Shown one piece after another: positions 25,974 through 61,974 of a stretch of 64,000 bases of DNA. The notes beneath the pieces were generated by a model. That model worked only from the letters and a program-made list of their open reading frames with translations, was not told the origin of the DNA and made no database searches. Numbering within the stretch: position 1 is the first letter of the stretch; every line of letters begins with the position of its first letter. Source of the stretch: an uncultured virus (IMG/VR IMGVR_UViG_3300031595_000004) (Duplodnaviria; Heunggongvirae; Uroviricota; Caudoviricetes); the IMG/VR virus record IMGVR_UViG_3300031595_000004. One strand, 5' to 3'. The translations under genes and the position numbers were made by a program.

Positions 25974-26789
25974 TCAATACCCCGGGTCCGCAGAATTGCT
26001 CGCGACGATTTGCGCGACGGCTGGATCGACGGCGTACTGGAGAGCCGTCAGTGTCTTGGGACCTGCGACGCCGTCCGCTACGAGACCCGACGCAATCTGA
26101 AACGCCTTGATTGCGGCTGTGGTTTTATTGCCGATAATGCCATCAATCTTGAGAGGCGGTTTCGCTCCGAGCGCATTGAGCGCCCGCTGCATACTCGAGA
26201 CATCGCTCACAGGCAATTGGGACGCCGTTTTGGACAAGTGCGCTACCATGTCCGGAGATGCCGTTTGGACAGTCGAGTAAGACGATATCGGACGGCCTGC
26301 CGCTGCCTTGTGACCCAAGGCTATTTCGAGATGCTTTCGCGTGGGCAGATCGGCGACGGCCGTAATGGGTAGTTCGATAGACCGCTGGAACGCGCCGATA
26401 GCCCTTTGTGTAGCGGGCGAGATACGGCCAGAGATAGTGATGGGACCGAAGCCGAGCGTTATCAAGCCTCGCTGGACATCCTCAATCGATTGCATCGAGA
26501 GATTCGTAGCGGCTCCGCTGCGGCTCACAAGGACGGGAGCCGCCTTATTGACGCTTGGACCAGGCTTGTAGGGCGCAGGCTGGTAGATAGCCTGAGGCCC
26601 GTTGTCCGGCAGTGGGGGGACTTCGGTGAGCGACGTGCGCGGATGCTTGTGGTGACTGCGTGTGGGGACGACCACGGTATCGCCGTTTTTGTTGGGCAGT
26701 GCTTGAATTTCCGGCTCTTCGTCCTCCATCGCACCGTAGAGGAAATAGGCGCCTGTACCTCCGATGAGCAGTAAGATTATAGGATGCAT
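25974..26789 (-). CDS. Membrane-anchored peptidoglycan-binding protein (2 PG_binding_1-like domains)
   Basis: N-terminal TM; MQRALNALG..LKIDGIIGNKTTAAIKAFQ..GLVADGVAGPKT. Confidence 0.85.
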   Translation of the reverse strand: MHPIILLLIGGTGAYFLYGAMEDEEPEIQALPNKNGDTVVVPTRSHHKHPRTSLTEVPPLPDNGPQAIYQPAPYKPGPSVNKAAPVLVSRSGAATNLSMQSIEDVQRGLITLGFGPITISGRISPATQRAIGAFQRSIELPITAVADLPTRKHLEIALGHKAAAGRPISSYSTVQTASPDMVAHLSKTASQLPVSDVSSMQRALNALGAKPPLKIDGIIGNKTTAAIKAFQIASGLVADGVAGPKTLTALQYAVDPAVAQIVASNSADPGY

Positions 26790-26797
26790 TCGTCCCT

Positions 26798-27685
26798 CTA
26801 TTGGATTGGCCCACCACTCGCATCGTCTCGTGGATCGATAGAAGACGGAATAAGCTTCTTGGCCTCTTCCTCTTCCATTTGCTTTTTTCGTGTAGCTTCT
26901 TCGAATCGCGCCATGAGAGGACCAAGAAGCTTGGGAGGAATGAGGCCCATGGCCGCCAATTGTTGAATTGCTTCTGGCTTTACTTCTTCGGCCATAGAAT
27001 CGATGAGCGCCGTATCGGAAGTAGACTGAGGGAAGATGTCTCTTCCACTGACGGTGTTGACGAGAGCCGGCACCATGCCCACGAGCGCTTTACGCTCGCT
27101 CGCAGATTGCTTGAACTGAAGTTCGCGCATTCTCTGCTCATGGTTTTCGGTCGCCTTCTGCATCATCATCTCTCGGACGATGCCGTAGGCGTCATTGACC
27201 TCGTCACGAAGGCGTGCTTCGCGTTCGGCCATTGCTTGTTCGCGCTGCAAACTCGTGACAGCTCCCGTCTGAATGAGGTTGACGAGCATTTGGGTAATGT
27301 TTTCGGTATGGCGCATGGCTTGCGCCACAAGCCCTTGACCGTCCGGAGTTTCCTTGACCGTGCGGCCACGGCCCCCTTGCTGGAGCTCGCCCTCCATGAC
27401 CGTGATTGTGTGGTGAAGTCCAGGGGCACTACTGCCGTAAAAAGCTTGCATCTCGAACTGCTGAATACCGCCGAAGTCTTGGGCATACTGTTCGGCCAAG
27501 CCCTGAAAGATCTTCGCAAGGTCTTTGGCGTCGTGACTCTTGCCTTTGAGATTGATGGTCTTGACTTCACGGTTGCCGCCGCCGTGCTTGAGATACATCA
27601 AGGCCATAGCCGTACAGGGGGATTCCCTGTCCGGCTCGGAGAGTGCTTGAGCGATCCATTGCTCGAGAGGTGTGTATTTGGCCAT
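26798..27685 (-). CDS. Hypothetical helical protein, 295 aa
   Basis: Long ORF with coiled-coil-like segments. Confidence 0.65.
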   Translation of the reverse strand: MAKYTPLEQWIAQALSEPDRESPCTAMALMYLKHGGGNREVKTINLKGKSHDAKDLAKIFQGLAEQYAQDFGGIQQFEMQAFYGSSAPGLHHTITVMEGELQQGGRGRTVKETPDGQGLVAQAMRHTENITQMLVNLIQTGAVTSLQREQAMAEREARLRDEVNDAYGIVREMMMQKATENHEQRMRELQFKQSASERKALVGMVPALVNTVSGRDIFPQSTSDTALIDSMAEEVKPEAIQQLAAMGLIPPKLLGPLMARFEEATRKKQMEEEEAKKLIPSSIDPRDDASGGPIQ

Positions 27686-28993: not shown

Positions 28994-29683
28994 TTATTTC
29001 CTTCGGAGAGATACGATGGCGACTCCGCCCGCGATGATGGCGACAAGCGCCAAGTTTTTCGTAATCCAGTTTGCGCCCGCCGCGAGCTTGTCTTCCGCTT
29101 TCTTGTATGAAGGGGCGTCCGCCGTCCGAGGGACAAGAGCCGGGTCGAGATACGAGACTGCGCCCTTGACCGGATCGGGCGCGTTTCGAGCGGCGGCGTC
29201 AAGCGCCTGATACACCTGACTTGACGGCGGCGTAGCCGGCTGGGGCAAGGGACGCATCGCGAACGGCATTCGGTTGAATAGGTCCTGCGCGTCGCCCTTG
29301 GTCACACGGAGATCGGGATAGGACTGCTGAAGAGTCTTTAGGATGGCGTCGTAGTATTGCTTGGCGGACGTGAACCCTTCGAAGAAGCGGTCAATCCCTT
29401 GGCCGAGAAAACCGCCCGTCCCCGTATCGAGCGCATGCTGCGCGGCGTCTCGCGCGGCTCTATAGCGAGTCTTGAGATTCTGCCAATCCCTCATCCAATC
29501 GGGGTCCACTTTCTTTCCTTGAACATTCGTTTCAATCTGCGCCATCTCATCGTCTTTGGCTTTGATAAGAGCGCGCAAGTCGGCAATTGTCTTTTCTGTA
29601 CTCATTCCGAGGAAAGAACCAAACGTCGCGGGATGCCGATGACGACGATTGATTTCTTGGAAATGAGTCTCCCAGTTTTTCAT
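28994..29683 (-). CDS. Putative virion membrane protein, C-terminal TM
   Basis: Ends LALVAIIAGGVAIVSLRRK; N-terminal leader similar to the next gene. Confidence 0.6.
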   Translation of the reverse strand: MKNWETHFQEINRRHRHPATFGSFLGMSTEKTIADLRALIKAKDDEMAQIETNVQGKKVDPDWMRDWQNLKTRYRAARDAAQHALDTGTGGFLGQGIDRFFEGFTSAKQYYDAILKTLQQSYPDLRVTKGDAQDLFNRMPFAMRPLPQPATPPSSQVYQALDAAARNAPDPVKGAVSYLDPALVPRTADAPSYKKAEDKLAAGANWITKNLALVAIIAGGVAIVSLRRK

Positions 29684-30591
29684 GCGTGCACCTGGGACGA
29701 TAGTGCAAGAATTCCGATGCCAATTGCGATGGCTGCGATGACGATTCCAGTAGAAGCTATAGCTACTGCCCCTACCCCCGGAACCGTGATGTAGCTCTCG
29801 ACCGACGCAAGGACCTGCCGGATTTTCGTTGTGATGTCTTCCTTCGTCACGAACCCTTTTCCAGACACGTCAAAGCCTGCATTCTGCGTATAGATAGTGC
29901 TCGGCGCGTGCCCGAGAATCGCGCTGTCAGGCTTGCCGATAAAGGCCGGATAGAAGACTGCAAGGTACGTATCTTCGAGCGAATGAAGTTTGTCAATGTA
30001 CGGCGCGAAGTACTGCTTGACGAGTTCTAGCTGCTGACTGAATGTCATACCCTTTAGCTTACTTACGGCGTCACTCTCTGTGGAAGTGCCGAGTAGCGCA
30101 CGCGCTGTAGACGGCATGAACTGAATGAGACCTACAGCGCCGCTCCCAGCCGCGTTCTCCACAGTCGGAGAGAACGTCCCTCCGGTCTCGAAGTTGATAA
30201 CGCTCGCGAGCCATGAAGGGTCAATGCCGATAGCTTGCGCCGCGCGAACAAGCGCTTGTTGGTCTGATACTGGCAGACGAAGGAGTCCTGGAAACGCTGG
30301 CAAACTGGCGGCAGGAGGAGACCCTGTAATCCCGAGCTTTGCGAGCGTCGCGCCGTCAATGACGGCCGACTGCGGGATGCCAGCCTGACGCTGGAAAACG
30401 ATGAGCGCGGCGCGCGTAGCGGGCCCCCAAATGCCGTCCTCCTTCAAGCGAGGGTTCGCGCCGTGGCCATTGAGCGCATGTTGAACTGCAAGCGTGTTTG
30501 GGTCTCCACCAAAACTACTCCCGTCGCCTCCGAAGGATGCGGGGTACTTGGCGCGATAGGTAATTCGCTTGAAGTGGGATTCCCAATTCAC
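29680..30591 (-). CDS. PG-binding plus lytic transglycosylase/lysozyme domain, C-terminal TM
   Basis: DGIWGPATRAAL..FQ; INFETGGTFSP...SGAVGLIQFMPSTA; hydrophobic tail. GTG start inferred from similarity to the 29683 leader. Confidence 0.85.
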   Translation of the reverse strand: MNWESHFKRITYRAKYPASFGGDGSSFGGDPNTLAVQHALNGHGANPRLKEDGIWGPATRAALIVFQRQAGIPQSAVIDGATLAKLGITGSPPAASLPAFPGLLRLPVSDQQALVRAAQAIGIDPSWLASVINFETGGTFSPTVENAAGSGAVGLIQFMPSTARALLGTSTESDAVSKLKGMTFSQQLELVKQYFAPYIDKLHSLEDTYLAVFYPAFIGKPDSAILGHAPSTIYTQNAGFDVSGKGFVTKEDITTKIRQVLASVESYITVPGVGAVAIASTGIVIAAIAIGIGILALSSQVHA

Positions 30592-30604
30592 GAATTTAGA
30601 CCGT

Positions 30605-30847
30605 TCAGTTCTCTCTCTTCTCAAACTCTCTTGCTCTAACCATTCTTTCTACCGATTCGACTCCGCTCCTGAAACTAGTCTTGCAAATGTCCAAAAAATC
30701 ACTCTCGGACATTTCGCTTTCGACGGCTCCGAACGTGGCAAGGGATAGTGTTATCGTGATCCCTTCAGTCACGGTCACATTTTCTTCGGCTAGGACATCT
30801 CCAATCCGAAGACCTATCGCCACACATTCTTCTTTGCTTTTAGCCAA
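30605..30847 (-). CDS. Hypothetical protein
   Basis: 80-aa ORF on the coding strand. Confidence 0.5.
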   Translation of the reverse strand: MAKSKEECVAIGLRIGDVLAEENVTVTEGITITLSLATFGAVESEMSESDFLDICKTSFRSGVESVERMVRAREFEKREN

Positions 30848-31845: not shown

Positions 31846-31919
31846 CGGGCGTGTCGATCCTTTATTCTCCACATTGGAGAAGAAGTAACACTTCAATTCA
31901 TGAATTGAGCTAACCGCTT

Positions 31920-33303: not shown

Positions 33304-33837
33304 TCATAATACATCCCTACTTCGGCTCATGGTGTCTGCCGAGAGATCTTCGCCGTGATCGTCGTTCGCAACGAATCCGATGGCTCGTCCAAGCGCCACA
33401 ATCCTGAAAGACTTCTTGTGGGCGACAGGGCCAAGGTGAAGGCGCGCTTCTGCTTGATTGTTCGCGTGCATATAGTGAATCTGCGGCTCTCCATCCACTT
33501 CGATGGCGCACGCGTAAAGGTCCTTGTCGTTCCACTTGTCCAAGAAACAAGTGCGTGCGAAAGAACATTTGTTGCAGCGAATGACCGGATGAATCTTACC
33601 TAGCCTATCGAGCGAATGAACTCGGTTGTGGAGAAGGAGATTCGTCCCGCACGCTGGACATGAGATGAGGGCGAGAAGCCAGGGAGGCGCCCCTTCGTAG
33701 GGCATAGTCCATGTGCCGGCAAACCCCTTAACCGTACGGCCTTCGGGCGTGTCTACGTACTCCCATTGGGATTTGCGAAAGACGTAGGTTTCGATGGGAG
33801 AGGCGACGACGGATGCGGTTTGCATGTGAGACTCCAA
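33304..33837 (-). CDS. Zn-ribbon protein
   Basis: CPAC...CNKC pairs. Confidence 0.6.
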   Translation of the reverse strand: MESHMQTASVVASPIETYVFRKSQWEYVDTPEGRTVKGFAGTWTMPYEGAPPWLLALISCPACGTNLLLHNRVHSLDRLGKIHPVIRCNKCSFARTCFLDKWNDKDLYACAIEVDGEPQIHYMHANNQAEARLHLGPVAHKKSFRIVALGRAIGFVANDDHGEDLSADTMSRSRDVL

Positions 33838-34452: not shown

Positions 34453-35295
34453 CTACCCGTCGATTCCGAGCGTCACCGAAAAGATGTAGTTATCGGCCAC
34501 GCTATTATTGAAAAGCTGCGCCGCAAATGCCCCTGGAGGTAGTGGCTGCCACTGAGGACTGTTGCGTGGATCGTAAAGACGTCCGATATTTTGAATGGCC
34601 ACTTGCGCAGCCTGATCGGCAATAGGCGCCCCTCCGACGCTACCGACTGTCACGTGAACGCTCGTAGCGCCGATCTGTTTGACAGTCCCTAGAGCGGTCG
34701 GAAGAGCAGTTTGAGGGCCGCCGGTAAAGAGCGTATTGAGCTGAGGAAAGAAAACGACGAGAGAGCTCGCGGGAGCTACTTGGAATGCGCAAAGTCCGTA
34801 GAACGGATCTGTTTCGTCCGGATTTGGAATGTCCCAGAACGGTTGCTGCGATTGCGCCGCACGAAGACCAGGCGAAACATTGATGGTGATGGCGTAGACC
34901 TGTCCAGGAACACCAACTTCACTCCCAAGAGGGGAAGCGTCGTAGACGTTCACGTTGCAGGCTTCCCCGACTCCAGAGATTGTAGTCCCCGAGATGACGG
35001 ACACCGAACGGCGGACTGCGGTACCATCCACGATCCAAGTGATGTCTGCGAAAACGAGCTGGCCGACTTTGCCAGGCAATTGCGCTTGCTGCGAGACTTC
35101 AAACTGGATCGTATAGACGTCGCACTTGGGAAAGCAGACCTGCATCTTGACGACGCGGCCCCCGGGCGGAGAACCTGGCAAAGGTGCCACGTTTTGACAC
35201 ACCAAGTTGCCCGACTGAGACCAACCAGTCTGAGAGTTCAACTCACGAGCATTGTTCTGCATCATGAGTTTACGTGCGCCAGGAGTCATGTTCAT
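34453..35295 (-). CDS. Beta-rich structural protein (possible minor capsid/penton)
   Basis: 280 aa with alternating hydrophobic beta-strand patterns; function is inferred only. Confidence 0.4.
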   Translation of the reverse strand: MNMTPGARKLMMQNNARELNSQTGWSQSGNLVCQNVAPLPGSPPGGRVVKMQVCFPKCDVYTIQFEVSQQAQLPGKVGQLVFADITWIVDGTAVRRSVSVISGTTISGVGEACNVNVYDASPLGSEVGVPGQVYAITINVSPGLRAAQSQQPFWDIPNPDETDPFYGLCAFQVAPASSLVVFFPQLNTLFTGGPQTALPTALGTVKQIGATSVHVTVGSVGGAPIADQAAQVAIQNIGRLYDPRNSPQWQPLPPGAFAAQLFNNSVADNYIFSVTLGIDG

Positions 35296-38543: not shown

Positions 38544-39212
38544 CTAGTAGCTTCCATCATCGGGTGGCGGAGGTGGCGGCGTGGGGTGAGGGTACTGCGA
38601 AGGGATGACCGTGCCAACCCCAAAGTCGCCCCCAGCAGGAGGAGGGCCGCCAAACCCTTCACCGTGCGGCATGGGAGGTACGGGCGCCGCCGTCGCTTCG
38701 AGCGGCACTGGCGCCTGCATCATCTGCCCCGCTTGCGTCGCAGGTGCTTGCCCTTCAGGGTGCTGCAATTGTTCTTCCGGATGCTGCGCCGGAGGATTGG
38801 ACGGCGTAAGCTGAACCGGGGGGATTGGTAAGGCTTGTTCTAGCCCTTGGGCGTAGTCCCTCAAAATTCCGGCTGACGCTCCGGCTCCTTGACTTTCGAA
38901 GACGAGCGCTAATCCGCGAATTGCAACCGGATCGGTGGACGAGAGAGCCTGCTTGAGCGCGGCGGCCCGCGCGAGTTGAACATTGGCGGGGACCGTGGGA
39001 AGTTTGGCGCGGTTACGAAGTGCGCGCGCTTGCTCGAAGAGACCCGCCTCTTTGAACGCGTCGGCAAGCCGGTTCAAGCGCTCCGGATCTTTCTCGAAGG
39101 AGATAGCCATCGAGTAAACCGCTTGGCGCTCAGGCGTCAAGTCGCCCACGTTGGTCTTGTGGGCGTAATAGCGCCAGAGAATGAAGAGTCCTAGCGGAAG
39201 CCAGAGAGCCAT
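38544..39212 (-). CDS. N-terminal TM protein with Pro-rich tail
   Basis: Paralogue of 31243-31845 (LTPERQAVY...RLADAF). Confidence 0.65.
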   Translation of the reverse strand: MALWLPLGLFILWRYYAHKTNVGDLTPERQAVYSMAISFEKDPERLNRLADAFKEAGLFEQARALRNRAKLPTVPANVQLARAAALKQALSSTDPVAIRGLALVFESQGAGASAGILRDYAQGLEQALPIPPVQLTPSNPPAQHPEEQLQHPEGQAPATQAGQMMQAPVPLEATAAPVPPMPHGEGFGGPPPAGGDFGVGTVIPSQYPHPTPPPPPPDDGSY

Positions 39213-39214
39213 GA

Positions 39215-39589
39215 TTATCCCTTCATCCAAATCTCGTCGTACGGTTTCGCGTTGACGATACGAGGCGTCTCATGCCAGAGAGATCCACGTTTCGGCAGTC
39301 TCGCGTCGATCGCCTTATCGGGTCCAACGTGGATAGACGGCGAAATCTGCCACTCTCCGTCTACTATCTTCACAAGACCCCAGCTTCGTCCACCAGGCCC
39401 ATTTTCCGTATAGATACCGTTCGGAATAATTGGAACCGCGAATGAGTGATGAAAACCGTCTGTGCATTTCACATAAAACCAGAAAATCCAATAGCGGATT
39501 CTATTCGGAGTAACGGCTCTGTGGATCGTGCAGTCGTTCTCATTAAGCGCTTCCACATAGACCAAAGAGCGGTACCGGAGCTCCATCAC
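39215..39589 (-). CDS. Hypothetical protein
   Basis: 124-aa ORF overlapping its neighbours. Confidence 0.5.
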
Positions 39590-40746
39590 GAAAGCCGCTT
39601 GATGCTCAAAGTAGCGCTGACCGAATGCGTACCGCCTGCGTCTGTCGTTATCGTGAGCGCTGTGGGGTTACCGGCAGGGTTAATGACTGAAAGGACTTGA
39701 CCAGCGCCGATAGTGACGATGGTATTGCCGCTCCCTTGATTGGTGGTCGTAGCGCGGCCGATGACCGTGTCTGGCAAGCCTGCGCCGTTCAGGGCCAATT
39801 GTAGCTGACCCGCTTCGGTGAAGCTCACCTGCCAAGAAACTTCGTAGTCGCCCGCGTTGACGACGGTAAATGAAAACGCGTCCACGCGCACTGCTATACC
39901 GCCGCTTGCTGGTCCATCTTGCGGGAATGCAACGGGGGCATTGGCTGCTACCGTAGCGGCGTTGTCCCCAGGCATGAGCGCGAAGAAGAGTGCATAGCCA
40001 AGATTGCCACTTGCTCCAGTTGCTCCGCTCGCTCCAGTTGCGCCTGCGCCAGTTGCGCCCGCAGGTCCGCTCGCTCCAGTTGCGCCGGAGCCGGCTACAC
40101 CAGTGGCCCCTACAGGTCCGCTTGCTCCAGTTGCGCCGGCAGGTCCACTTGCTCCAGTGGCGCCAGAACCGGCAGGTCCAGTAGGGCCAGTAGTTCCTGA
40201 ATTACCAGTAGGACCTGTAGCGCCGGTCGCCCCTGAACCGCTAGGTCCTGTAGCGCCAGTAGCACCGCTAGACCCTGTAGCGCCAGATCCAGAACCGCCT
40301 GATCCGGTCGCTCCCGTTGCTCCCGCACTTCCACTAGGACCAACGGGTCCCGTGGCGCCACCCCCATCGATGGGCCACGGATACGGAACGATTGCCTGAT
40401 TGTCGAAATAATCGTCACTCGCCAAAATGAGCGCGATTATCGATTGACAAAGAGTCGTAAAGGACGACGGATCGATTGTCTCTGTCGTAAGCTGGGTAAA
40501 GCGATTCTCCCAGATCGCTTTGCAAGTCTTCTCAATAAGGAAGACTTCGAGTGTGTTGGGGTTCGTATTCGGATCGATTCCCCACGCCTGGTCAAACGAC
40601 GTCGCGAACGCGCCTGCGATGACGGCGCTTTCTTGGTAGATGGCCGCATCCACATTCGTAAGGACCCTACCGCTTGCGGCGAGTCCAGAGACAACTCCGG
40701 CATAGGCCGCTGTGAAAACGGTGGTACTATTGGGGACGTAGGCCAT
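39586..40746 (-). CDS. Collagen-like fibre, family A, with BclA-CTD-like (C1q/TNF fold) head
   Basis: Anchor domain, GAT triplets, head [22 protein letters not shown]...SATLSIKRL. Confidence 0.8.
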
Positions 40747-40758
40747 GGACCAGCCGCC

Positions 40759-41541
40759 TTACGCGATTTGACGAATGTTGAGCGTGGCGCTGACCGAATG
40801 TGTACCGCCGGCCGTTGGCGTGATAGTGAGCGCCGTCGAGTTACCTGCCGGATTGATGAGTGAAAGAACTTGTCCAGCAGTCGCCGTGATGATAGTGTTG
40901 CCCGAGATCTGGTCTGTCCCAGTGGCGCGACCTGTCACGGTATCGGGGAGACCACTGCCGCCGATTGCCAGTTGAAGCTGACCGGCTTCGGTCACGCTCA
41001 CCTGCCACGAGACGGCGTACGTGCCCGTATTCAGCAATGTGAAGGAGTAGTTGTCAACACGCGTCGCAATGGGAGATGCGCTTACGGGCCCCGTCTGCGG
41101 GAACGCGACTGGAGCACCGACAGCAACCGTTGCGCTGTTGTCCCCAGGCATGAGCGCAAAGAACGCGGCGAAACCTCCAACACCTGGAGCGGGGGCAGGG
41201 GGGATGACAACACCAGCTCCCAGGTTCGCAGCCGCGAGCGTATAGAGTTCGAGAATAGACGTCGCGAGAGCGAAGTAGGCATTGGGCAGGGTCAGAGTCG
41301 CGTCCACGAAAGGCCGACCCTCGGTTGCAGCGGCGCAAATGCCTGCAAGGAGAATCTCTTCGTCGATAGTAGTCAATGCGAGAGGAACGGCTGCAAAGAC
41401 GGCTTCGAGCTGAACCGCAAACGCGTTGGCGCCTGCAATCTGTACCGAGTAATCGGCCGCCAGATCCAACCCTTGGATACCGCGACCGTTAAAAACTCCT
41501 TCGACCGCGCCTTGATAGGCCGCATTCTGAGTAACAGACAT
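40759..41541 (-). CDS. Spike protein with BclA-CTD-like head, no collagen shaft
   Basis: Head very similar to 39586-40746; N-terminal domain shared with 41583-42467. Confidence 0.7.
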   Translation of the reverse strand: MSVTQNAAYQGAVEGVFNGRGIQGLDLAADYSVQIAGANAFAVQLEAVFAAVPLALTTIDEEILLAGICAAATEGRPFVDATLTLPNAYFALATSILELYTLAAANLGAGVVIPPAPAPGVGGFAAFFALMPGDNSATVAVGAPVAFPQTGPVSASPIATRVDNYSFTLLNTGTYAVSWQVSVTEAGQLQLAIGGSGLPDTVTGRATGTDQISGNTIITATAGQVLSLINPAGNSTALTITPTAGGTHSVSATLNIRQIA

Positions 41542-41582
41542 TGATATCTCTCCTTTGGTTTTGGGTTAGTGCGTGAACTTAC

Positions 41583-42467
41583 CTAGCCGACTCTGGAAAG
41601 CATGAGCGATCGATTGCAAGAGCCAGCGTCCGCGCCAGTGGCCGCGGGATTGGTGACCGTGACCGTATCGGTAACCGTGTTGGTCCGATTGTGCAGGGTT
41701 ACGCTCGCTCCGGCGGCCAAGTGGATGATACCGTGTCCCCGAACCGTCTGCTGAATTGTTGGATTGAGCGCACCAACGAATTGGTAGGTCCGCGCTACGG
41801 AGGCCCCATTGACATAGAGCTCGAAAACGAGCGGCGTCGTCGCTTGAGCCGCGTGCGTTCCTGTCACGTAAAAGTCAAACTCGTAGTCGCCTGTCGTAGC
41901 AACCACGAACGCCGTGCCCGCAGGAGCCGGAACACTCGAGAAGCCTGCGTTCGGGTAGGGAGTGCCGCCGAGATCGAAAACAACGTCCGCATCTGCGCCA
42001 ATGCTCGTGCTCGATGCGCCGTAGGCCACTCCGTATGCGGGAGTGACTCCACCTCCGCCGCCTGCGCCCGTAGCGCCGGCAGGTCCGGTCGCGCCAGAAG
42101 GGCCCGTCGGTCCCGTTGCGCCTGAGGGCAATACGATTCCGCTTCCGAGGTCGGCGACCGCGACGCTATAAAGTTCGAGGATGGACGTGGCGAGATCGAA
42201 ATACGTATTGGGGAGGGTGAGAGTCCCGTCGACCAAAGGACGCCCTTCGAGGGCGGCTGCACAAATACTCACCAAGAGTAGCTCTTGGTCGAGCGTCGTC
42301 ACGGACACGGAGGCAGTAGCGAAGACGGCTGCAACCTGCGTCGCGAAAGCGTTTGCGCCCGCCACATTGACGTCGTAGTCGGCGGCGAGATCCAATCCTT
42401 GGATACCGCGGCCGTCGAAAGCTCCCTGGATTGCGCCTTCGAAGGCGGCATTCTGTGTAGCGGACAT
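41583..42467 (-). CDS. Spike protein with short collagen and C1q/BclA-like head
   Basis: MS.TQNAA..GA..G.F.GRGIQGLDLAADY N-domain; GDYEFDFYV. Confidence 0.7.
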   Translation of the reverse strand: MSATQNAAFEGAIQGAFDGRGIQGLDLAADYDVNVAGANAFATQVAAVFATASVSVTTLDQELLLVSICAAALEGRPLVDGTLTLPNTYFDLATSILELYSVAVADLGSGIVLPSGATGPTGPSGATGPAGATGAGGGGGVTPAYGVAYGASSTSIGADADVVFDLGGTPYPNAGFSSVPAPAGTAFVVATTGDYEFDFYVTGTHAAQATTPLVFELYVNGASVARTYQFVGALNPTIQQTVRGHGIIHLAAGASVTLHNRTNTVTDTVTVTNPAATGADAGSCNRSLMLSRVG

Positions 42468-42561: not shown

Positions 42562-43140
42562 TTATCCTGTCCTCTTGAAGTACGAATTCTCGTTTGCTTC
42601 CATTCCGCACACCTTGCTTGGGTCCTCGAACCCGTGCGGCGTTTGGACGAGAATGTGATAGTTCGTTTGATTGTCTTTCTTGTCGACCATCCAGCGAAAG
42701 ACTGGTTTTGACTTGATCCCTTGCGCTGCGTACTCCGCGATAAGTGCGGCTGTGAGACTCTTACAATCCCCAAAGCCGCGACGGTAGAGCGCTGGAATCG
42801 AGTCCCAGACCTGCGTACGGTCGTAATAGACGCCGCTCTCATAAAGCGGCGCGATGCATCCAGGTCGAAACTGTAAGAAGATAAGATTGATAGCGCCAAG
42901 GCAGTGTAGAAGCGCTTGAAGTGCTTTCGCATTATCGACCGGGTCTGACGCCGAATCGAAACACGAAGGCAAATCAAACGTGACGCAGTACGCCGGACCG
43001 TTTCGAAGGGTGGCGCCACGTTTCCCACAACTGCCTTGTATGGTCTCGGCGGTAGTAACGAGAATGTTTCTCACACGTCGATTCTCCTCAGGATTTGATC
43101 CCTGAGTGAACACATGCGGGATACAGAACTCGATTTGCAC
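42562..43140 (-). CDS. Transglutaminase-like cysteine protease (candidate maturation protease)
   Basis: GDCKSL (Cys), YHILV (His), EDPS (Asp) in transglutaminase-like order. Confidence 0.75.
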   Translation of the reverse strand: MQIEFCIPHVFTQGSNPEENRRVRNILVTTAETIQGSCGKRGATLRNGPAYCVTFDLPSCFDSASDPVDNAKALQALLHCLGAINLIFLQFRPGCIAPLYESGVYYDRTQVWDSIPALYRRGFGDCKSLTAALIAEYAAQGIKSKPVFRWMVDKKDNQTNYHILVQTPHGFEDPSKVCGMEANENSYFKRTG

Positions 43141-43231
43141 GCCTGACCTCCGCTTTTGCCTTTCTCAGCTTAATGGGAGAAAGGTAATTGCCAATACACG
43201 TCCTAGTTCATGAACTAGGGTACGCAGTACC

Positions 43232-43966
43232 TTAGCAGCCGCCGCCGCCGGCGATCGTGCTCGGTCCCTGAACGGTCGCAACGAAGGTGTACGAGAACCC
43301 CGTGGCAAACCCGGGCGGAATGAAGCCCGTGTAGTTTCCGGTGACCGTGAGCCGGTTCGCGGGCTCGAGAGTCGGCAGGTCGAGGGCGACTCCCTGCGCA
43401 AGTGCCGAATACGTGAAAGCGTCTTCCGTGTCGCCGACGAAGGCGTTCACGTTCGCGACTTGCAGGCCACTGAGGAGAACGAAGTTCGGCGCCGGAGCGT
43501 TGAAGACAACGCGCTGGGGACGGATCTTCGTATTGGGCTGCAAGGTCATGTCGACGAGCGGGGTCGGCGTGCCGAGCGTGAAGAGGTTGGTCAAGGAGAA
43601 CGAGTATCGTTCGATCTTGAGCAAGCTGTTCTCGTTCGGGTCGAGTAGTGCCGCACGGGCCGCCGTGTGGCCCATGAGCTGGTGGTGGTGGTGCCACGCC
43701 CGGACCATTTCCGGATGCGCGTGACGGCCAGGGGGAGCCGCGACGGGCGGGGGAGCTCCCTCCGCGCCGTAGTCGTACCCGAACCCGTATCCGAAGTCCG
43801 CAACCTGTCGCGGCATTCGGCGCGGCATTGCCTGACGAGCCTGGGGATACGCAGATCCACGGCCGTAGCCGCGGGGAGCGTAGCCGAAGTCACTGCCCGG
43901 AAGGGCGCCCATGACCGCGGCGAGTGCCGGGTCACGCATCGAGAGCTGAGAAGCGTTCGGTCGCAT
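43232..43966 (-). CDS. Candidate major capsid protein (single jelly-roll with disordered N-terminal leader)
   Basis: About 100-aa low-complexity leader then about 140 aa of beta-strand patterns (QPNTKIRPQRVVF, LQVANVN, LDLPT...LTVTG); strong AGGAG RBS; next to the protease. Confidence 0.5.
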   Translation of the reverse strand: MRPNASQLSMRDPALAAVMGALPGSDFGYAPRGYGRGSAYPQARQAMPRRMPRQVADFGYGFGYDYGAEGAPPPVAAPPGRHAHPEMVRAWHHHHQLMGHTAARAALLDPNENSLLKIERYSFSLTNLFTLGTPTPLVDMTLQPNTKIRPQRVVFNAPAPNFVLLSGLQVANVNAFVGDTEDAFTYSALAQGVALDLPTLEPANRLTVTGNYTGFIPPGFATGFSYTFVATVQGPSTIAGGGGC

Positions 43967-44076
43967 GTGATGATTCTCCTTGGTTATTGCTGCGCAAACT
44001 AGATATCGATTCGTCGTCGACTATATTTGCGTACAACCCAAAGACGCTAAGATAATTCAAGAACTAAGCAAATCTT

Positions 44077-46317: not shown

Positions 46318-46755
46318 CTAGCCAAGACGCGCCGCTGCCGCCAAGACCGGGTCGCTATCGATATCGACTTCGCCCGCGTGAGCCGCGACTGCGGGATGCG
46401 GACGGCCCGCACCGAGCATCGGACGCCCACGAAGATGGATGTAGCGCTCGGTCGCGCGGTAGCTCGAGATGGCGAGTCCCGCGACCGAAGCCTGCCGGAC
46501 CAAGTCCCTCGTCGATTTGCTTGCGCTGACGACGAGGGAAAGGCCGAGACCCGCAAGCGATCCTGCGATGTCCAGGGGGACGCGCTTTCGGCCGACGGTC
46601 GCTTCGAGATCGGTCTTGGAGTGAGCAGCGGCGTATCCGATACCGATGCCCGTGGCGGTCGCGACAACGCCGTCGTGAATGATCTCTTTGCCTTCCCCGC
46701 CCTTCCAGCGGCTGGCGGCGAGGTCGTAGTGTTTGCGGATGAAGGATTCGGCCAT
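46318..46755 (-). CDS. Virion membrane protein, paralogue of 48088-48591
   Basis: Hydrophobic helices, VPLD, HAGEVDIDSDPVL tail. Confidence 0.6.
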   Translation of the reverse strand: MAESFIRKHYDLAASRWKGGEGKEIIHDGVVATATGIGIGYAAAHSKTDLEATVGRKRVPLDIAGSLAGLGLSLVVSASKSTRDLVRQASVAGLAISSYRATERYIHLRGRPMLGAGRPHPAVAAHAGEVDIDSDPVLAAAARLG

Positions 46756-46810: not shown

Positions 46811-47259
46811 TTAGCGATTGAACGGTTCAAAGACGATGGGCGGAACAGTCTTGGGCACTTCTTCGCCATTCAGTCTTCGAAACTCATTCATCGCGTAGGT
46901 CTTCCTGTCCCCCGGAGTCTTGCCGTAACCTTCGAGCTTCATCCACTTTGCAGGGTCCTTGCGATCCTCCGCATAGAAGACGAAGAACAGAGTGACGGTA
47001 CTCGAACCCCAGAGTCGCTTGATGCGGACTCCGCCGTTGTACCGCTCGGTAGAGGAGGCTACGACTTTGCGCATACTCAGATTCCGAGTACTTTTCGCGC
47101 CCTACGCGCAGATACAGAATCTCCTTCTTTCACCTTCTTCAGAAACTCTCTCGTGGTCGCTGCATACTTTTGCATGCGGCTCTTGCCTTCTGCGTCGAGT
47201 CCAAGAGCAGAGATGAGTTCTTTGCGTGTAAACGATCTGCGCTTTCGCTTGTGGGGCAT
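46811..47259 (-). CDS. Two small proteins (46811-47074; 47077-47259 MPHKRKRR)
   Basis: Tightly packed coding-strand ORFs. Confidence 0.6.
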
Positions 47260-47813: not shown

Positions 47814-48078
47814 TTGCGTGCTGCCGAGTTGAGCGCCTTGACGAGTAGTTCATGAATTCGCCAAGACGGCTTGTGTCGTTTCTTTGCGCGGCGCTTGTGC
47901 GGCATAACTACCTCTTACGAAGTAAATAATCGATTTGGTTTTCTATCGCGCGAATCTTTGAAGCATTGGCTGGCGTCTCTTCAACTGAATCCAGTTTATG
48001 GAGAATATGTTTCAGTCTTTCGTTGGTCAACTTACGCTGACCCTTATGCTTCTTCCTTGCGCGTCTCTTGGTAGGCAT
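47702..48078 (-). CDS. Two small basic proteins (47702-47905 MPHKRRAKK; 47908-48078 MPTKRRARKK)
   Basis: K/R-rich N-termini; second ORF hand-translated. Confidence 0.65.
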
Positions 48079-48087
48079 CGCAGTCGC

Positions 48088-48591
48088 CTAACGTCCCACT
48101 CCAAACGCCCGAGACGCTTGAAGCACGGGATCGTCCATATCGATGACGTCGCCGTGCGCGGCGGCGTGTCCGGGAAGCGCTTTTGCTCCCGAGTGAATAC
48201 CCTTGCCCCTTCGGCGCCAATCGCCAGCCTTTCGGTACGCGAGAACCGAAAGAGCCGAGCTTCCGAGATTCCGGAGATCGGCCGAGAGACCCGTCGCGTC
48301 GTTCGCCATCATGACGCTACCGAGTAGACCGACAGCAGCCGCTACACCGTCGATGGGTACGTTGTGCTGGCCCACCTGGACATCGAGGCTTCCACGCTCG
48401 GCTTCCAGAAGGCCAAGCGCCGCGCCCATGAGGCCCGATTCGCCACCCTGACGAACCGCCTGCGCGCCTTCGGTCACGTGACGTCTGATCCCCGCGCCAC
48501 CCCCCATTCCCTCGTACCACCGACGAATGGCACTCTTGGCCGGACGAGACATATTGGACTGGGAGATCTCTTCAGTGATTGCGTCGGCCAT
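48088..48591 (-). CDS. Virion membrane protein; first gene of the putative late operon
   Basis: Hydrophobic helices, VPIDG, HGDVIDMDDPVL tail. Confidence 0.6.
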   Translation of the reverse strand: MADAITEEISQSNMSRPAKSAIRRWYEGMGGGAGIRRHVTEGAQAVRQGGESGLMGAALGLLEAERGSLDVQVGQHNVPIDGVAAAVGLLGSVMMANDATGLSADLRNLGSSALSVLAYRKAGDWRRRGKGIHSGAKALPGHAAAHGDVIDMDDPVLQASRAFGVGR

Positions 48592-53079: not shown

Positions 53080-53955
53080 TTATGAAACGTCCTCTGACCC
53101 GAAGCTATTGATAGGTCCGTCATCGAGCTCATCTGTATCATCATCTTGCCTGGGTGACAAGATGAGTTTGCCGGGGTACTCCGGATGGTCTGCCGGCGTC
53201 ATGAGAAGCTTGACGCCCACGGGCGATTCGCCGAAGCGATTCTTCGTCGAGCAAAAGAACCGTTCTCCGTCCGAGTCGTCCTTCTCCAGAAAAAATGTGG
53301 CATCGACCGCGTGCTGAAGCTTCATGATCCCCGCGTGGTCACCGTCTTTGTTGATCTGGTTGACGATAAGGCTGGGGGCTTTAAGCTCGACAGTGTAGCT
53401 CTTTAGCCGTTCGCACACCATGAGCCCGAGGTTTGGGTCGTCGCCCGTCAGTTTCGTCAGAGAATCCAAGATCATAAGACCTGGCTGGTAGCGGAGGATG
53501 AGGGCTCCAAGGTCACTCTTGAGCCCTCCCATCGCTTTGACGACACGAATTTTGACCATGTTCTTGATACGAATGCGGCGAGCGGTTTCCTTGATTTCTT
53601 CCGGTCCTTGCTCGTTCGCGATGAACATGGCTTCTCTACCCGTGATGTCGATGATGGCGTCCGCAAGCTGAAGGAAAAGCGTAGTCTTGCCAGCTCCAGG
53701 AGGACCCGCTACAAGGCTCACGCTCGTTCGCGCCAAGCCTCCGCCGAAGACGACGTCAAGCATTCCTGTCTTATAGCGTTCGATGACGGCAAGTTTGGCG
53801 TCAGAGAGGATGACCGTCTCTTCGTCGTCGGACGTGGAGTTCTTATCAGGGAGGTGCCAATTCTTGCACTTCGGACAACGCATCTTGTCCGAAGGGACTT
53901 GACCTTGACAGAGTTTGCAGGTGTAAGTGCCGATAGAGCCACTAGAGGAGGACAT
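53080..53955 (-). CDS. radA: RadA/Sms-like recombination ATPase lacking the C-terminal Lon-like domain
   Basis: N-terminal C4 Zn finger (CKLC...CPKC..W), GPPGAGKT Walker A, ILDS Walker B, KNRFG. Confidence 0.85.
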   Translation of the reverse strand: MSSSSGSIGTYTCKLCQGQVPSDKMRCPKCKNWHLPDKNSTSDDEETVILSDAKLAVIERYKTGMLDVVFGGGLARTSVSLVAGPPGAGKTTLFLQLADAIIDITGREAMFIANEQGPEEIKETARRIRIKNMVKIRVVKAMGGLKSDLGALILRYQPGLMILDSLTKLTGDDPNLGLMVCERLKSYTVELKAPSLIVNQINKDGDHAGIMKLQHAVDATFFLEKDDSDGERFFCSTKNRFGESPVGVKLLMTPADHPEYPGKLILSPRQDDDTDELDDGPINSFGSEDVS

Positions 53956-57399: not shown

Positions 57400-58092
57400 T
57401 TGAAGAAGGAAAGTCCGTGGGCGAAGGGAGCCCGGACCAGGAAACGCAATGCTCGCGCTCGTGAGCGCGCCGCACGCGAGAGATCCGCCCGCGCCAAGCA
57501 TGCTGCGCTCGTTCGTTGGTATGGAGAGAAAGGCAAGAAGGGACTCGAAAAGAAGAAGGGACTCGAAAAGAAGAAGGGAGTCGAAAAGAAGAAGGGAGTC
57601 GAAAAGAAGAAGGGACTCGAAAAGAAGAAGGGACTCGAAAAGAAGAAGGGAGTCGGGAAGAAGAAGGTAGTCGGGAAGAAAAAGCCTGGACCCAAACCGA
57701 AATCGAAAAAGGAAGCGGCAATCCAGGCAGAGAATATGAAGCTCAAAAGAGATAATCGGAAACTACTTAAGATAATAGCTGACCAAAACGTACGAGAGCA
57801 GATTACGGAAGCCAATCTCGGAAAAGGAATCATGAAAGAGAGAGGGAAAGGGAAGAATCGAATTTTCGATACGTTGGCAAGGCACGGAGCCAAAGAGCAT
57901 TTGCCTCCAAGGATGCGTCACGAGAGTGACGAAGATTACGCGAAACGCATCATCAAACAACTCATGGGGAAGAAAAACTATACGGTAGAAGCGGGAAATC
58001 TGGCTATGGAGTTTTATCAAGCCATTTCGAACGCTACAGGGGTACAACCTAGAAGGGTGTATACGCTCTTTATGAGTCCAGAAGTTGCGTAG
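57400..58092 (+). CDS. Highly basic protein with KKKG(L/V)E repeats
   Basis: About 8 tandem 18-bp units at 57535-57680. Confidence 0.65.
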   Translation: MKKESPWAKGARTRKRNARARERAARERSARAKHAALVRWYGEKGKKGLEKKKGLEKKKGVEKKKGVEKKKGLEKKKGLEKKKGVGKKKVVGKKKPGPKPKSKKEAAIQAENMKLKRDNRKLLKIIADQNVREQITEANLGKGIMKERGKGKNRIFDTLARHGAKEHLPPRMRHESDEDYAKRIIKQLMGKKNYTVEAGNLAMEFYQAISNATGVQPRRVYTLFMSPEVA

Positions 58093-58710: not shown

Positions 58711-59716
58711 ATGGCCGCTATCGATTGGCAGAAGAGACCTGCAATACCGACAAAGCCGTACTGTGGCAAGTGTAAGGGGAGCGGCATCTATCGAGAGAGG
58801 TCAAGGAGGGGCGCTTATCACAAATGCAGTTGCGGACGGCTCCCAAACGCGACCGCCGCACTCAAGCTCACCAAACAGGATGTTCTCCTAAAACGTCTCT
58901 CCGAACTCAAAACGAAAGGCTGGTAATGCCCATGGCCGGCTCCGACGATTTACAACTTGCTGCCGACGTCAAGCGAGAGATGCTCACCAAACTCAAAGTG
59001 ATTCAGGAACGGCTAAAAGGAGGATTTCCAACTTCGAGGGAACTACACGACCTCGCCGCCAACCGTTGGAAGGGCGGGGAAGGTAAAGAGATCATCCGGA
59101 TGTCGCTTGTCGAACTCACCGAACTCATTGACATTCTCATCCGGAAAGCGTGAGAGAGTCCCATGTCAAAAGTTCATGAACTGCGCCCTCCTCACTACGT
59201 AACGAAAAAAGACGGAACGCTACTACTCGACAAGGAAACAGGTGCGCCTGTCTGGTGCGGGAGTGCGGCAAGCCGTATCGAGCAATATAAGAGTCAAGCG
59301 GCTCCCGAGCTTACGAAAGAACTCGAGAGAGTCAAAGCGAGACTCGCATACTTCGAAAACAAATACGGTTTTATGGAAACACAAGAGTGGCAAGAAGCTA
59401 TCAAGAAAGACAATGAACTCTATACAAATAGAGTCAGCGGAAAGGCTGTCCCATGATCCATGAAAGTCCAGAAAACTGGCCGAATCACCAAGCGCCGCTC
59501 AATGACGATGAGGCGCTCACGGTCGCCAAACTCATCTTGAACGGTAAACACAAGAGCTACATCGAAGGAGCCAAACGACTCGCGCAGTACGTCATCGCGC
59601 TTCACCAGCAGGCAGAAGACATCGAAAAGCTTCTGGACGATGCAGTCCACGATACGATTCCTGAGATATTTGCAGCCGAGGCGCCGCTCGCTATAGCCGA
59701 ATCTGCCGAGCCGTGA
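58711..59716 (+). CDS. Four small hypothetical genes (58711-58926, 58926-59153, 59163-59456, 59453-59716)
   Basis: Tightly packed or overlapping ORFs. Confidence 0.6.
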
Positions 59717-61974
59717 GACTCTCCTATCACTTTCCGTCTGGAGACCCATGCCGCATCTGTAAACGCCCCGCTTCTTCCCACCGTATTACCCACGCCTCCG
59801 AGGGAAATCCTTGCGCGCGATGCGGCTACGGAGCGGGATATCACACGAGCATTGCGAAACGAGTATTGAGCGACAAAGAATCACCCCAAAACGAATACCT
59901 CGGCATCGACGGAGAGGGACAGGGGCGAGAGGACCACCGCTATATCTTTCTTGCCGTAAGCAGTAGTGACGGCACGCAAAGGTGGTCTATCGACGGCAAA
60001 GTAGAATCGGAGACCGACAAGCGAAGAGTGCGTCTCACGACCAAGGAATCGCTCGATTTCATTCTTTCAATTCCTAAGACCAAACGTACCAAAATCTTCG
60101 CATACGCCTTTCAGTACGATCTCACCAAGATTTTGACCGACGTCGACACTCGGTCCTTGTACCGGCTCTTTAGACCTGAAACGAGAAAACGCCGACCTGA
60201 CGATACGCGCAAGGGCCTTATACCTATCTACTGGCACGGATACGTCATCAATCTTCAGGCGAGCAAGTTTACGGTCAAAAAGGGCCCAAGACGCGCGACC
60301 ATTTGGGATATCTTCAAGTTCTTTCAAGGCCGATTCGTCGCTGCCATCCAAGACTGGAAAGTCGGCACTCCCGCCTTATGGGAGCGGATGGCGCGCATGA
60401 AAGAACAGCGCGCCGACTTTGACAAGCTCGATTGGGACAGTGTCAAGGAATACTGCTACGAAGAATGCGCCTCGATGGCCGCCTTGGCTCAAAAGCTCAC
60501 CGAGGCTCACGAGAAGGCTGGACTCAAACTCAAGAATTATTACGGAGCCGGCTCAAGCGCCGAAGCGATGCTCACTGTAATGGGGATAAAAGCGCGCCTG
60601 AGACCATGTCCAGAAGAACTAAAGGACGTTGCCCAGCGCGCCTTTTTCGGCGGTCGGTTCGAGAATTCAGTCTTGGGGACTATTTCAGGCACTCTCTACG
60701 GATACGATATCTCGAGCGCGTACCCGTACGAGCTATGCTTTTTGCCATGTCTCGAACACGGGAGATGGCAGTGGACTCTGGAGCGAAAGGATCTAGAAGG
60801 TCCCCACGTCACTTGCGCTTTGGTACAATATAAGTTGGGTAGAATAAAAAAGGAGGCAGGGCTGGCAACCGGACACTGGGGGCCATTTCCTTTTCGTGAG
60901 AAAGACGGAAGTATTTGTTTCCCAGTCTCGTCGGGCGGAGGATGGGTGTATCGAGAAGAGTATCTCGTAGGCGAGAGACTTTTCCCCAATACGGAATTTC
61001 ACGGAGCCTGGGTCTATAAAACGACGTGCGACTGCCAACCGTTCAAGAAGATTCCCGGGTACTACACCGAGCGGGTACGAATCGGAAAGGAAGGTCCGGG
61101 AATCGTCATCAAACTTGGATGCAATAGCTGCTATGGAAAGCTCGCGCAATCCGTTGGCGCCGCGCGGTTTCAATCGTGGCTTTGGGCGGGGATGATAACG
61201 AGCGGCACGCGCGCAAAGCTTTTGGAGATGGTGGGACTCGTCAAAGACCGAGCTTCAATTCTAATGATGGCGACGGACGGAATTGTTTCGAGAGAACGAA
61301 TCAGGGCGCCACGTCCCAAGGACACGGGCACGTTTGACGTCGTCAAGATGAAGGACGGAAAACCGGATGGCGATCCAGTCCCGCTCGGCGGATGGGAAGA
61401 GAAAATCAATACCAAAGGGATGTTTTTCGCTCGACCTGGAATCTACTTCCCACTATCCCCAACGGCCAAAGAGGCCAGTAGCGTACGCGGGCGGGGAGTC
61501 GGCCGGAAAGCCATCCTAGAGAACTGGCAAGACATCGTCTCCGGATACGAGCGCCTCAAAGAGGAAAAGAAACTCACCACGGGTACGGTCAAGATATCAG
61601 AAGTGTCGCGGTTCTGCGGAGTCAAGAGTTCGATAACTCCGTCCGATAAGAACGGCAAAAAACTCTATACGCGCGCGTACGGCAAGCCTGACCCCAAACG
61701 CCCAGGCCACCAAACGCCGTCCTACGGGCAATGGATCGTGCGCCCCGTCGAGCTATCCTTCGATCCGATGCCAAAGAGGACCGCGGTCGGAGAGGCAATC
61801 CTTGGACATCTTGCAAGCAGTCTTACCGTACGGAAAGTGAGTCAGAGATTGACGAGCGCCGTGTATGAGAAAGCGCTTGACGAAGAAGGGAAACAACTCA
61901 GGGAAGCAAAAGACGAAGTCGAGGAACAACCGGACTGCGATCTATTCGAAGATGAAAACGAGAGTAATTCATGA
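59713..61974 (+). CDS. polB: Family B DNA polymerase, protein-primed (phi29/PRD1) type
   Basis: ExoI IDGEG, ExoII YDL, FFGGRFE, motif A YDISSAYP, TPR1-like GPFPFR..G.I.FP, motif B KLGCNSCYGK, motif C ATDGI. Confidence 0.9.
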   Translation: MRLSYHFPSGDPCRICKRPASSHRITHASEGNPCARCGYGAGYHTSIAKRVLSDKESPQNEYLGIDGEGQGREDHRYIFLAVSSSDGTQRWSIDGKVESETDKRRVRLTTKESLDFILSIPKTKRTKIFAYAFQYDLTKILTDVDTRSLYRLFRPETRKRRPDDTRKGLIPIYWHGYVINLQASKFTVKKGPRRATIWDIFKFFQGRFVAAIQDWKVGTPALWERMARMKEQRADFDKLDWDSVKEYCYEECASMAALAQKLTEAHEKAGLKLKNYYGAGSSAEAMLTVMGIKARLRPCPEELKDVAQRAFFGGRFENSVLGTISGTLYGYDISSAYPYELCFLPCLEHGRWQWTLERKDLEGPHVTCALVQYKLGRIKKEAGLATGHWGPFPFREKDGSICFPVSSGGGWVYREEYLVGERLFPNTEFHGAWVYKTTCDCQPFKKIPGYYTERVRIGKEGPGIVIKLGCNSCYGKLAQSVGAARFQSWLWAGMITSGTRAKLLEMVGLVKDRASILMMATDGIVSRERIRAPRPKDTGTFDVVKMKDGKPDGDPVPLGGWEEKINTKGMFFARPGIYFPLSPTAKEASSVRGRGVGRKAILENWQDIVSGYERLKEEKKLTTGTVKISEVSRFCGVKSSITPSDKNGKKLYTRAYGKPDPKRPGHQTPSYGQWIVRPVELSFDPMPKRTAVGEAILGHLASSLTVRKVSQRLTSAVYEKALDEEGKQLREAKDEVEEQPDCDLFEDENESNS

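Follow-up and report, generated by a model that had tools for sequence, protein, structure and literature searches.

A candidate single jelly-roll capsid protein and a neighbouring transglutaminase-like enzyme in a group of soil viruses with a protein-primed polymerase

[quoted passage not shown] They are a lineage known from two archaeal species (PMC8459092), with SPV1 (Sulfolobus polyhedral virus 1) as the virus of interest here: its circular genome of 20 kb carries no polymerase, and its DNA is wrapped in nucleoprotein inside a membrane (PMC8459092). According to the available excerpt of PMC8812541, SPV1 has one single-jelly-roll hexon gene (VP4) and no FtsK or other packaging ATPase, and it serves as the proposed model for an ancestral jelly-roll virus with a single gene and no motor. 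The same excerpt ascribes two divergent single jelly-roll (SJR) capsid genes and an FtsK-HerA ATPase to the Singelaviria/Helvetiavirae (Sphaerolipoviridae, Simuloviridae, Matsushitaviridae). The Tectiviridae have genomes of 15-18 kb, a double jelly-roll (DJR) capsid and an FtsK-type ATPase. Where DJR viruses have a single jelly-roll protein, it usually forms the penton, as stated in the excerpted text of PMC6048507, which also describes that the clan CE proteases of the virophage Mavirus, adenovirus and ASFV cut after glycine in variable capsid extensions.

The window analysed here, a stretch of 64,000 nucleotides, comprises bases 1-64000 of G000, a single virus record of 73,685 bp that is classed as linear with an estimated completeness of 49% (CheckV). 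As this estimate and a left end that falls inside a paralogue of a fibre gene indicate, the contig is incomplete. Its right end is ambiguous: three of four runs, which may be source samples, stop 23 nt past the end in a 150-nt contig, a second flank converges in two runs and one run extends 799 nt further, so a linear genome with inverted ends is only suggestive for G000 itself. The sequence occurs in 21 DNA runs that bear the label rhizosphere metagenome, and 20 of these are possible sources. Between 1 and 55 kb nearly all genes lie on the minus strand, among them genes for collagen-like and BclA_C fibres, glycosyltransferases, proteins with peptidoglycan-binding and SLT domains and a holin-like protein; these cell-wall genes point to a bacterial host. 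A host search by way of a Fis-type domain gave no match, and the labels of genome bins were not trusted as a guide, the bins with relatives bearing four unrelated ones. Myxococcota are only a lead, from locus L081 together with lipoprotein and Fis-type patterns. Beyond the window, the record encodes an SNF2-type helicase (L085:2377-4422, G000 65876-67921) and a ParB-like protein (L085:6724-7893, G000 70223-71392); ParB-like genes recur in relatives.

A first-pass annotation had singled out a capsid candidate and, next to it, a protease-like gene. Both open reading frames are present, adjacent and on the minus strand:

43232..43966, minus strand: predicted single jelly-roll protein (the barrel protein below), best major capsid candidate (AF2 model, homologues, codon bias, conservation)
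43247..43633, minus strand: jelly-roll domain, about residues 112-240 (AF2 model and structural matches)
43715..43966, minus strand: leader, residues 1-84, with a conserved N-terminal helix (R-D-P-A motif) and a variable Phe/Tyr-Gly-rich linker; candidate propeptide (alignment, AF2)
43976..43981, minus strand: Shine-Dalgarno-like AAGGAG, 9 nt upstream of the barrel gene (sequence)
42562..43140, minus strand: transglutaminase-like cysteine enzyme of 192 aa with C126/H162/D173, likely a maturation protease (PF01841, invariant Cys/His, adjacency)

Relatives of the locus and known virus groups

The locus set comprises 81 loci, 77 from metagenomes (at least 77, as 30 of 64 parts were scanned) and four in genome bins; L079 of genome G002 counts as one row in the locus counts and in the enzyme alignment, and nothing below depends on that row by itself. 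Their common gene order runs from the polymerase through a RadA-like ATPase, the 48088-type gene, barrel, enzyme, fibre and helical proteins to the 34453-type gene, the zinc ribbon, cell-wall enzymes and the 26798-type gene. The corresponding genes flanking the pair in the window are:

48088..48591, minus strand: small conserved protein whose gene usually sits immediately upstream of the barrel gene, with a paralogue at 46318-46755 (family in 50 of 82 records)
39586..42467, minus strand: three fibre-like genes with a common N-terminal domain and BclA_C heads (PF18573; PHROG collagen-like minor tail matches)
38544..39230, minus strand: conserved helical late protein with further family members at 36400-37032 and 31243-31896 (cluster in 41 records)
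33304..33837, minus strand: conserved zinc-ribbon protein of the late module (conserved family)
29680..30624, minus strand: peptidoglycan-binding and SLT transglycosylase protein, likely an entry enzyme; it has a leader of the W-x-x-H-F type, Phe-Gly sites and a tail that is hydrophobic (domains, leader)
28994..29683, minus strand: late protein with a W-x-x-H-F-type leader and a hydrophobic tail (leader)
26798..27685, minus strand: conserved late protein of no known family (cluster in 20 records)
25974..26789, minus strand: protein with two peptidoglycan-binding domains (PF01471, E 2e-27)

Further along the minus-strand block, positions 1030-21621 hold fibre paralogues with a common N-terminal domain, Ser/Asn-rich repeat proteins, glycosyltransferases and methyltransferases, which suggests glycosylated, variable spikes. 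Near-exact direct repeats surround small basic genes (90 nt at 30854-30943/31242-31331 and 119 nt at 47252-47370/47695-47813) and suggest that genes are gained and lost here by recombination; in one contig from an RNA library the sequence jumps from one copy of the 90-nt pair to the other. The start of gene 46318 (46679-46733) recurs in inverted form, over 56 nt and at 91%, at 59041-59095, inside a small gene upstream of the polymerase.

One relative, G001:C100, measures 45,030 bp; its barrel is 43% and its polymerase 50% identical to those of G000. Inverted terminal repeats of about 115 bp, 88% alike over 116 columns, are present at both ends, and the genome is therefore probably complete. 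It lies (as L082-L084) in a bin titled archaeon and carries peptidoglycan genes besides its inverted ends, so it is probably mis-binned. Scans with Pfam and PHROGs over 73 of its 84 selected ORFs (10 likely shadows and one ORF crossing a fetch boundary were left out) and over 67 ORFs of G000 found no terminase, portal, HK97 or DJR capsid and no FtsK-HerA family member, the markers HK97 capsid, portal and terminase being those expected of Caudoviricetes; profile scans cannot exclude a capsid of novel fold. A PHROG labelled portal was hit by one NUDIX protein, over its NUDIX-length part. An FtsK-type ATPase was likewise absent from the ORFs of the 81 loci, and the only true Walker A protein of G001:C100 is the RadA-like ATPase. 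The first-pass annotation had named another major capsid gene outside the window as a way in which its proposal could fail; none was detected in G001:C100 with its two terminal repeats, G000 itself being incomplete.

How does the locus relate to the described groups? To the Portogloboviridae the likeness of the candidate hexon is at the fold level only (Z 7.5 to SPV1 VP4, tied with the cellular enzyme PHM), and no sequence similarity was detected. The two would share a single hexon gene and the lack of an FtsK packaging ATPase, as the excerpt of PMC8812541 has it for SPV1; the capsid proteins would be of similar size once the leader is removed here, and glycosyltransferase and methyltransferase genes occur in both (PMC8459092). 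In contrast to the archaeal, circular SPV1 genome of about 20 kb without a polymerase, our viruses are of bacterial type and linear, span 45 to more than 74 kb and carry a protein-primed family B polymerase (pPolB), a protease-like gene and a long leader; G000 is a 73.7-kb incomplete contig with pPolB, and its relative is linear. From the Singelaviria/Helvetiavirae, HHIV-2, HCIV-1, SH1 and P23-77 VP17 match the barrel at Z 5.9-6.6; beside their two divergent genes and FtsK-HerA ATPase, the incomplete G000 has one barrel gene and no detected FtsK ATPase, with near-identical or diverged extra copies in some relatives. The Tectiviridae (Toil, WheeHeim, Forthebois) have the nearest polymerases among isolated phages, and G001:C100 is, like them, linear with inverted ends. 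Our genomes, however, are three to five times larger and lack a detectable FtsK-type ATPase, and their capsid candidate at 43232 has one barrel; the two domains of 34453 fit PRD1 P3 loosely, at an rmsd of 11.1. With the clan CE maturation proteases the locus shares a putative cysteine protease in the morphogenesis module, for which cuts behind glycine are predicted at several sites of a variable extension of the capsid protein (PMC6048507, excerpted text), but here the enzyme is transglutaminase-like (PF01841) and the extension is N-terminal. As each fails in a tested feature, we did not file the locus under Portogloboviridae, Helvetiavirae or Tectiviridae. The proposal that a single jelly-roll capsid with pPolB would be an unusual pairing is supported, the combination being absent from the known shell families compared. 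The literature that we found does not describe the family, subscription journals and supplements, where metagenomic catalogues could list contigs, lying outside the scope of the search; bioRxiv 2025.08.03.668216 concerns, in its available part, unrelated elements.

The barrel protein, the neighbouring enzyme and the leader

The barrel ORF encodes 244 aa from an ATG start and has no match in Pfam, PHROGs or NCBIfam. Relatives number 227 among 1,676 candidates, and the profile recovers 581 representatives of 50%-identity clusters at E<=0.001, 217 of these at 1e-30; none of barrel or enzyme was found among GenBank phages or in three viral-contig scans, from which near records may have been missing, and profiles of the barrel, the enzyme and 34453 had no meaningful match among the sequences of solved structures. 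In the AlphaFold2 model, built from 118 aligned homologues, residues 1-80 are of low confidence (blocks of ten at pLDDT 44-67), followed by a helix (85-108) and a beta domain at about residues 112-240, with pLDDT mostly above 90. This agrees with the initial description of a beta-rich domain of roughly 140 aa behind a disordered leader: the modelled domain has about 130 aa and one barrel, too short for a double jelly-roll, and its matches are to jelly-rolls. A fold other than a jelly-roll, the second way in which the first-pass proposal could have failed, was therefore not what the model gave.

A wide structural search against 48,161 chains gave 34 at Z 5 or more and none at Z 8, among them PHM (7.3), SPV1 (6.9), HHIV-2 (6.6), EhV capsid (6.3), HCIV-1 (6.2), STIV turret (6.0) and P23-77 VP17 (5.9). 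When the top 991 chains from Foldseek were re-aligned, SPV1 6oj0_A came first (VIA Z 7.5, rmsd 3.0, 116 aligned), and PHM, a cellular jelly-roll enzyme, tied with SPV1 at Z 7.2-7.4. Over both searches, other vertical jelly-roll capsid chains reached Z 5.9-6.8. The closest viral folds are SPV1, HHIV-2, HCIV-1, SH1, P23-77 VP17 and the single barrels of PRD1 P3. The Foldseek top matches in the PDB are Ena2A endospore appendage fibres (E 6e-4) and IBDV VP2; in BFVD, SPV1 VP4 ranks sixth at E 8e-4, and the ESM Atlas neighbours are only unnamed clusters, mostly viral. All Z-scores of the barrel lie below 8, a level that the search tool calls common, and the score published for SPV1 VP4 against P23-77 VP17, in the excerpt of PMC8812541, is likewise Z 7.5. 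We conclude that the fold is predicted to be a single jelly-roll whose viral matches lean to vertical jelly-roll capsids, which supports the proposed capsid reading at the level of fold and context. Since SPV1 ties with a cellular enzyme, the fold match alone is no proof of a capsid role, and since every score stays below 8 that role rests on context.

Incomplete G000 has one barrel copy; extras occur in 8 of the 81 loci inspected, several near-identical in the barrel. Near-identical tandem copies with differing leaders were seen in L009, L016, L024 and L047, and diverged leaderless copies of 128-288 aa in others (L005, L012, L044 and L046). A palindrome after the barrel stop codon was dropped as not conserved (z<-2 in 13 of 55 sites and in 8 of 54 control sites).

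The enzyme gene, with a GTG start and GGAGG upstream, lies 91 nt from the barrel gene. A complete copy follows within 453 nt of the barrel stop codon in 57 of the 81 loci; five more have cut-off copies, 12 end too soon and in five no barrel ORF is complete. Two loci seem to depart from this pattern, one through a leaderless extra barrel copy (L039) and one through the first of a tandem pair at a contig end (L070). Wherever it can be tested, then, the enzyme follows the barrel gene, and the pairing is not chance. An alignment of this copy and 56 of the 57 complete locus copies has the same Cys (C126, within a G-D-C-K-S motif) and the same His (H162) in all 57 rows. The residue at position 173 varies, with Asp in 43 rows and Cys in 14, and the Cys form is scattered over several places in a quick tree. 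The Cys-His-Asp triad noted at first therefore describes this copy (C126, H162, D173) and not the whole family. PF01841 matches 32 of the 57 homologues at E<=1 (best 4.8e-05), this copy scoring E 0.033 and 14.9 bits, below the cut-off of 23, and PF01841 occurs in 13% and 66% of the members of the neighbouring ESM Atlas clusters; by profile match, the enzyme belongs to the transglutaminase-like superfamily.

The leader is rich in a dipeptide that could mark the cleavage sites. Across 118 aligned rows, [FY]G occurs 637 times in leader residues 21-84 against 149 expected (4.3-fold), with at least two in every one of the 118 leaders, and only 33 times against 126 expected (0.26-fold) in the jelly-roll domain; the motif was chosen after the sequences had been inspected. 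G28 is invariant and G67 is present in 110 of 118 rows of an otherwise variable leader, and the last [FY]G site is mostly followed by A/V and then D/E. The product of a cut after G67 would have 177 aa, close to the length of SPV1 VP4 (181 aa). By analogy, not homology, with the virophage, adenovirus and ASFV systems we tentatively regard the repeated Phe/Tyr-Gly motifs as candidate cleavage sites, a reading to which we give slightly less than an even chance.

A second kind of leader, W-x-x-H/R-F, begins 11 of 940 late-strand ORFs and none of 563 others. At least four unrelated families are represented among these 11 proteins, every one of which has [FY]G within 40 residues (one by way of the leader's own Phe); among background windows the figure is 16 of 122. 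This leader, followed by Phe-Gly, was noted in the unrelated late proteins 29680-30624 and 28994-29683 and in L014, L020, L025, L029, L035, L049 and L054; some paralogues begin directly at the folded domain, and the leader is a possible virion-targeting propeptide. The idea that [FY]G sites mark all late proteins found no support at the family level, most other late families being enriched only 0.6-2.3-fold. By eye, a D-P-x-L-x-x-A helix was seen to end the 48088 family (48088-48591, 46318-46755) right after a Gly-Asp/Glu site; a similar helix opens the barrel leader, and the two may be a shared docking peptide.

Rival assignments for shell and enzyme

On this evidence, 43232-43966 is probably the major capsid protein of a tailless bacterial virus. 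The fuller account, in which the neighbouring cysteine enzyme also trims the barrel and other virion proteins during assembly, we consider likely. The main competitor for the shell is a second gene of the late module:

34453..35295, minus strand: two tandem beta-sandwich (jelly-roll-like) domains in 280 aa, likely a vertex, penton or turret protein (AF2, structural fits, identity, presence)

Pfam, PHROGs and NCBIfam give it no name. If it were a DJR-type major capsid protein in place of the barrel, this would suit the tectivirus-like polymerase of the genome, the two beta-sandwich domains of its AF2 model (pLDDT 92) and its whole-length alignments to PRD1 P3 (Z 7.0), STIV MCP (Z 6.7) and phiCjT23 (Z 6.1). 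The usual role of single jelly-rolls in DJR viruses, that of penton, also counts against the barrel as shell protein, 34453 being the gene with two barrels. These fits are loose, however (rmsd 11.1, 5.9 and 6.2; STIV turret A223 aligns at Z 6.5, rmsd 13.8), and its best matches, to GOLD-type barrels at Z 9.5, cover the N-terminal domain only. In all 21 shared loci its conservation falls short of that of the barrel (median identity 29% vs 53%); the gene tolerates long insertions, and was found in 19 of 26 loci with at least 7 kb downstream, neither BLAST nor HMM recovering it in the other seven. C-ending codon bias is generally read as a sign of high expression, and the share of such codons is higher in the barrel than in 34453 in 22 of 23 loci and than in the enzyme in 44 of 47; for Phe/Tyr/Ile/Asn codons the barrel gene leads in 20 of 33 loci and is among the top three in 32. 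Its near-identical tandem duplicates in four loci are a further sign of high copy number. Its median pairwise identity over 17 records is 52%, against 50% for the polymerase. Because the barrel gene was the query by which loci were collected, its frequency and its conservation relative to other genes are inflated; the codon result is less exposed to this. We therefore think it quite unlikely that 34453-35295 is the shell protein. The first-pass annotation had considered it as a second capsid or penton protein: the vertex or penton role is likely, and the figures for identity, presence and codon bias speak against a second major capsid protein, so that a two-barrel vertex or turret protein is the likelier assignment. 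The RNA-library signal was left unused; contigs cover the barrel in three of three runs, as the deepest bin in each, but depth cannot rank genes and DNA carry-over is possible. The barrel could instead form a fibre, sheath or decoration layer, with a conserved helical protein as shell or nucleocapsid of an enveloped or non-icosahedral virion. Ena2A heads the Foldseek PDB matches, cement and turret proteins are among the structural matches too, and several conserved helical late proteins lack assigned roles; yet by full alignment Ena-type chains reach only Z 5.2 against 7.5 for SPV1, and the helical proteins are less conserved and less codon-biased, the barrel standing higher in 34 of 34 loci. 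This arrangement appears very unlikely.

A milder departure keeps the barrel as capsid and leaves its leader uncut, as a sticky low-complexity or membrane-binding extension, with an enzyme that cross-links or acts on a host or cell-wall substrate. The leader is indeed of low complexity with a varying number of repeats, the third residue of the triad varies, and the transglutaminase-like superfamily includes transferases and peptidoglycan peptidases. What speaks for trimming is the near-invariance of G28 and G67, the recurrence of the same motif between leader and folded domain in unrelated proteins, and the position of the enzyme gene, which stays by the capsid gene and not by the lysis genes. 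An uncut leader is thus somewhat unlikely.

Replication, packaging and proposed assembly

Three genes upstream of the barrel bear on replication and packaging:

59713..61974, plus strand: protein-primed family B polymerase, pPolB (PF03175; phage matches Toil, P19 and WheeHeim at about 28%)
57400..58092, plus strand: Lys-rich protein upstream of the polymerase, a terminal-protein lead only (C-terminal motif)
53080..53955, minus strand: RadA/Sms-like ATPase with a zinc finger and without a Lon domain (TIGR00416, E 3e-19)

The polymerase named in the first-pass annotation is real, scoring above the PF03175 cut-off; actinobacterial tectiviruses are its closest isolated phages, at about 28% over 70-78% of its length (18 records matched), and a full ORF is present in 15 of 25 loci with at least 8 kb upstream. 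The Lys-repeat protein 57400-58092 shares a C-terminal Y-x-L-x-x-S-P with nine of nine members of a polymerase-adjoining family, a likeness seen by eye and not by BLAST. The RadA-like ATPase is the only conserved P-loop protein found. It occurs in 21 of 28 loci with at least 7 kb upstream, on the capsid strand in 18 and reversed in three, and was not seen in seven; with this distribution it does not belong invariably to the late module. It could serve recombination or be an unusual packaging motor. Fourteen short Lys/Arg-rich ORFs with basic N-termini lie between 23814 and 50973 (for example at 37035-38540 and 47077-48078), several starting M-P-x-K-R-R, and are possible DNA-condensing core proteins. 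Several late proteins of G000 have hydrophobic tails, which, with the basic ORFs, would fit an SPV1-like plan of nucleoprotein and membrane.

We propose that the barrel would assemble into six-fold capsomers as in SPV1 VP4, with 34453-35295 and the fibres at the vertices. The leader of 65-85 residues may act as a built-in scaffold that is cut after Phe/Tyr-Gly to leave about 177 aa, a step that we hold tentatively, just short of an even chance. Replication of the linear genome by pPolB would start from terminal proteins. Without an FtsK motor, the DNA might be condensed by the small basic proteins and wrapped in the course of assembly, with SPV1 as the precedent, a guess that seems to us evenly balanced; that the RadA-like ATPase instead pumps the DNA is unlikely.

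The group is a large and apparently undescribed set of soil bacterial viruses with a protein-primed polymerase on linear DNA, and possibly a new variety of tailless jelly-roll viruses, maybe of high rank. In its boldest form, which we find doubtful but worth stating, this would be an order- or class-level tailless bacterial lineage that combines a portoglobovirus-type single-barrel shell with a tectivirus-type protein-primed replicon of 45 to more than 74 kb (against 15-20 kb in the relatives compared), FtsK-less packaging and an adenovirus-like maturation of independent origin, in which a protease of transglutaminase fold cuts numerous virion precursors behind Phe/Tyr-Gly. Because neither Pfam nor PHROGs nor NCBIfam recognises the family, its barrel and protease genes would be usable markers for a part of the soil virome that is otherwise hidden. 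If the capsid assignment is true, a diverse soil bacterial family (581 clusters at 50% identity) with the SPV1 capsid plan would greatly widen that lineage, single-barrel shells could hold large linear genomes, and capsid and pPolB modules would have been mixed across realms.
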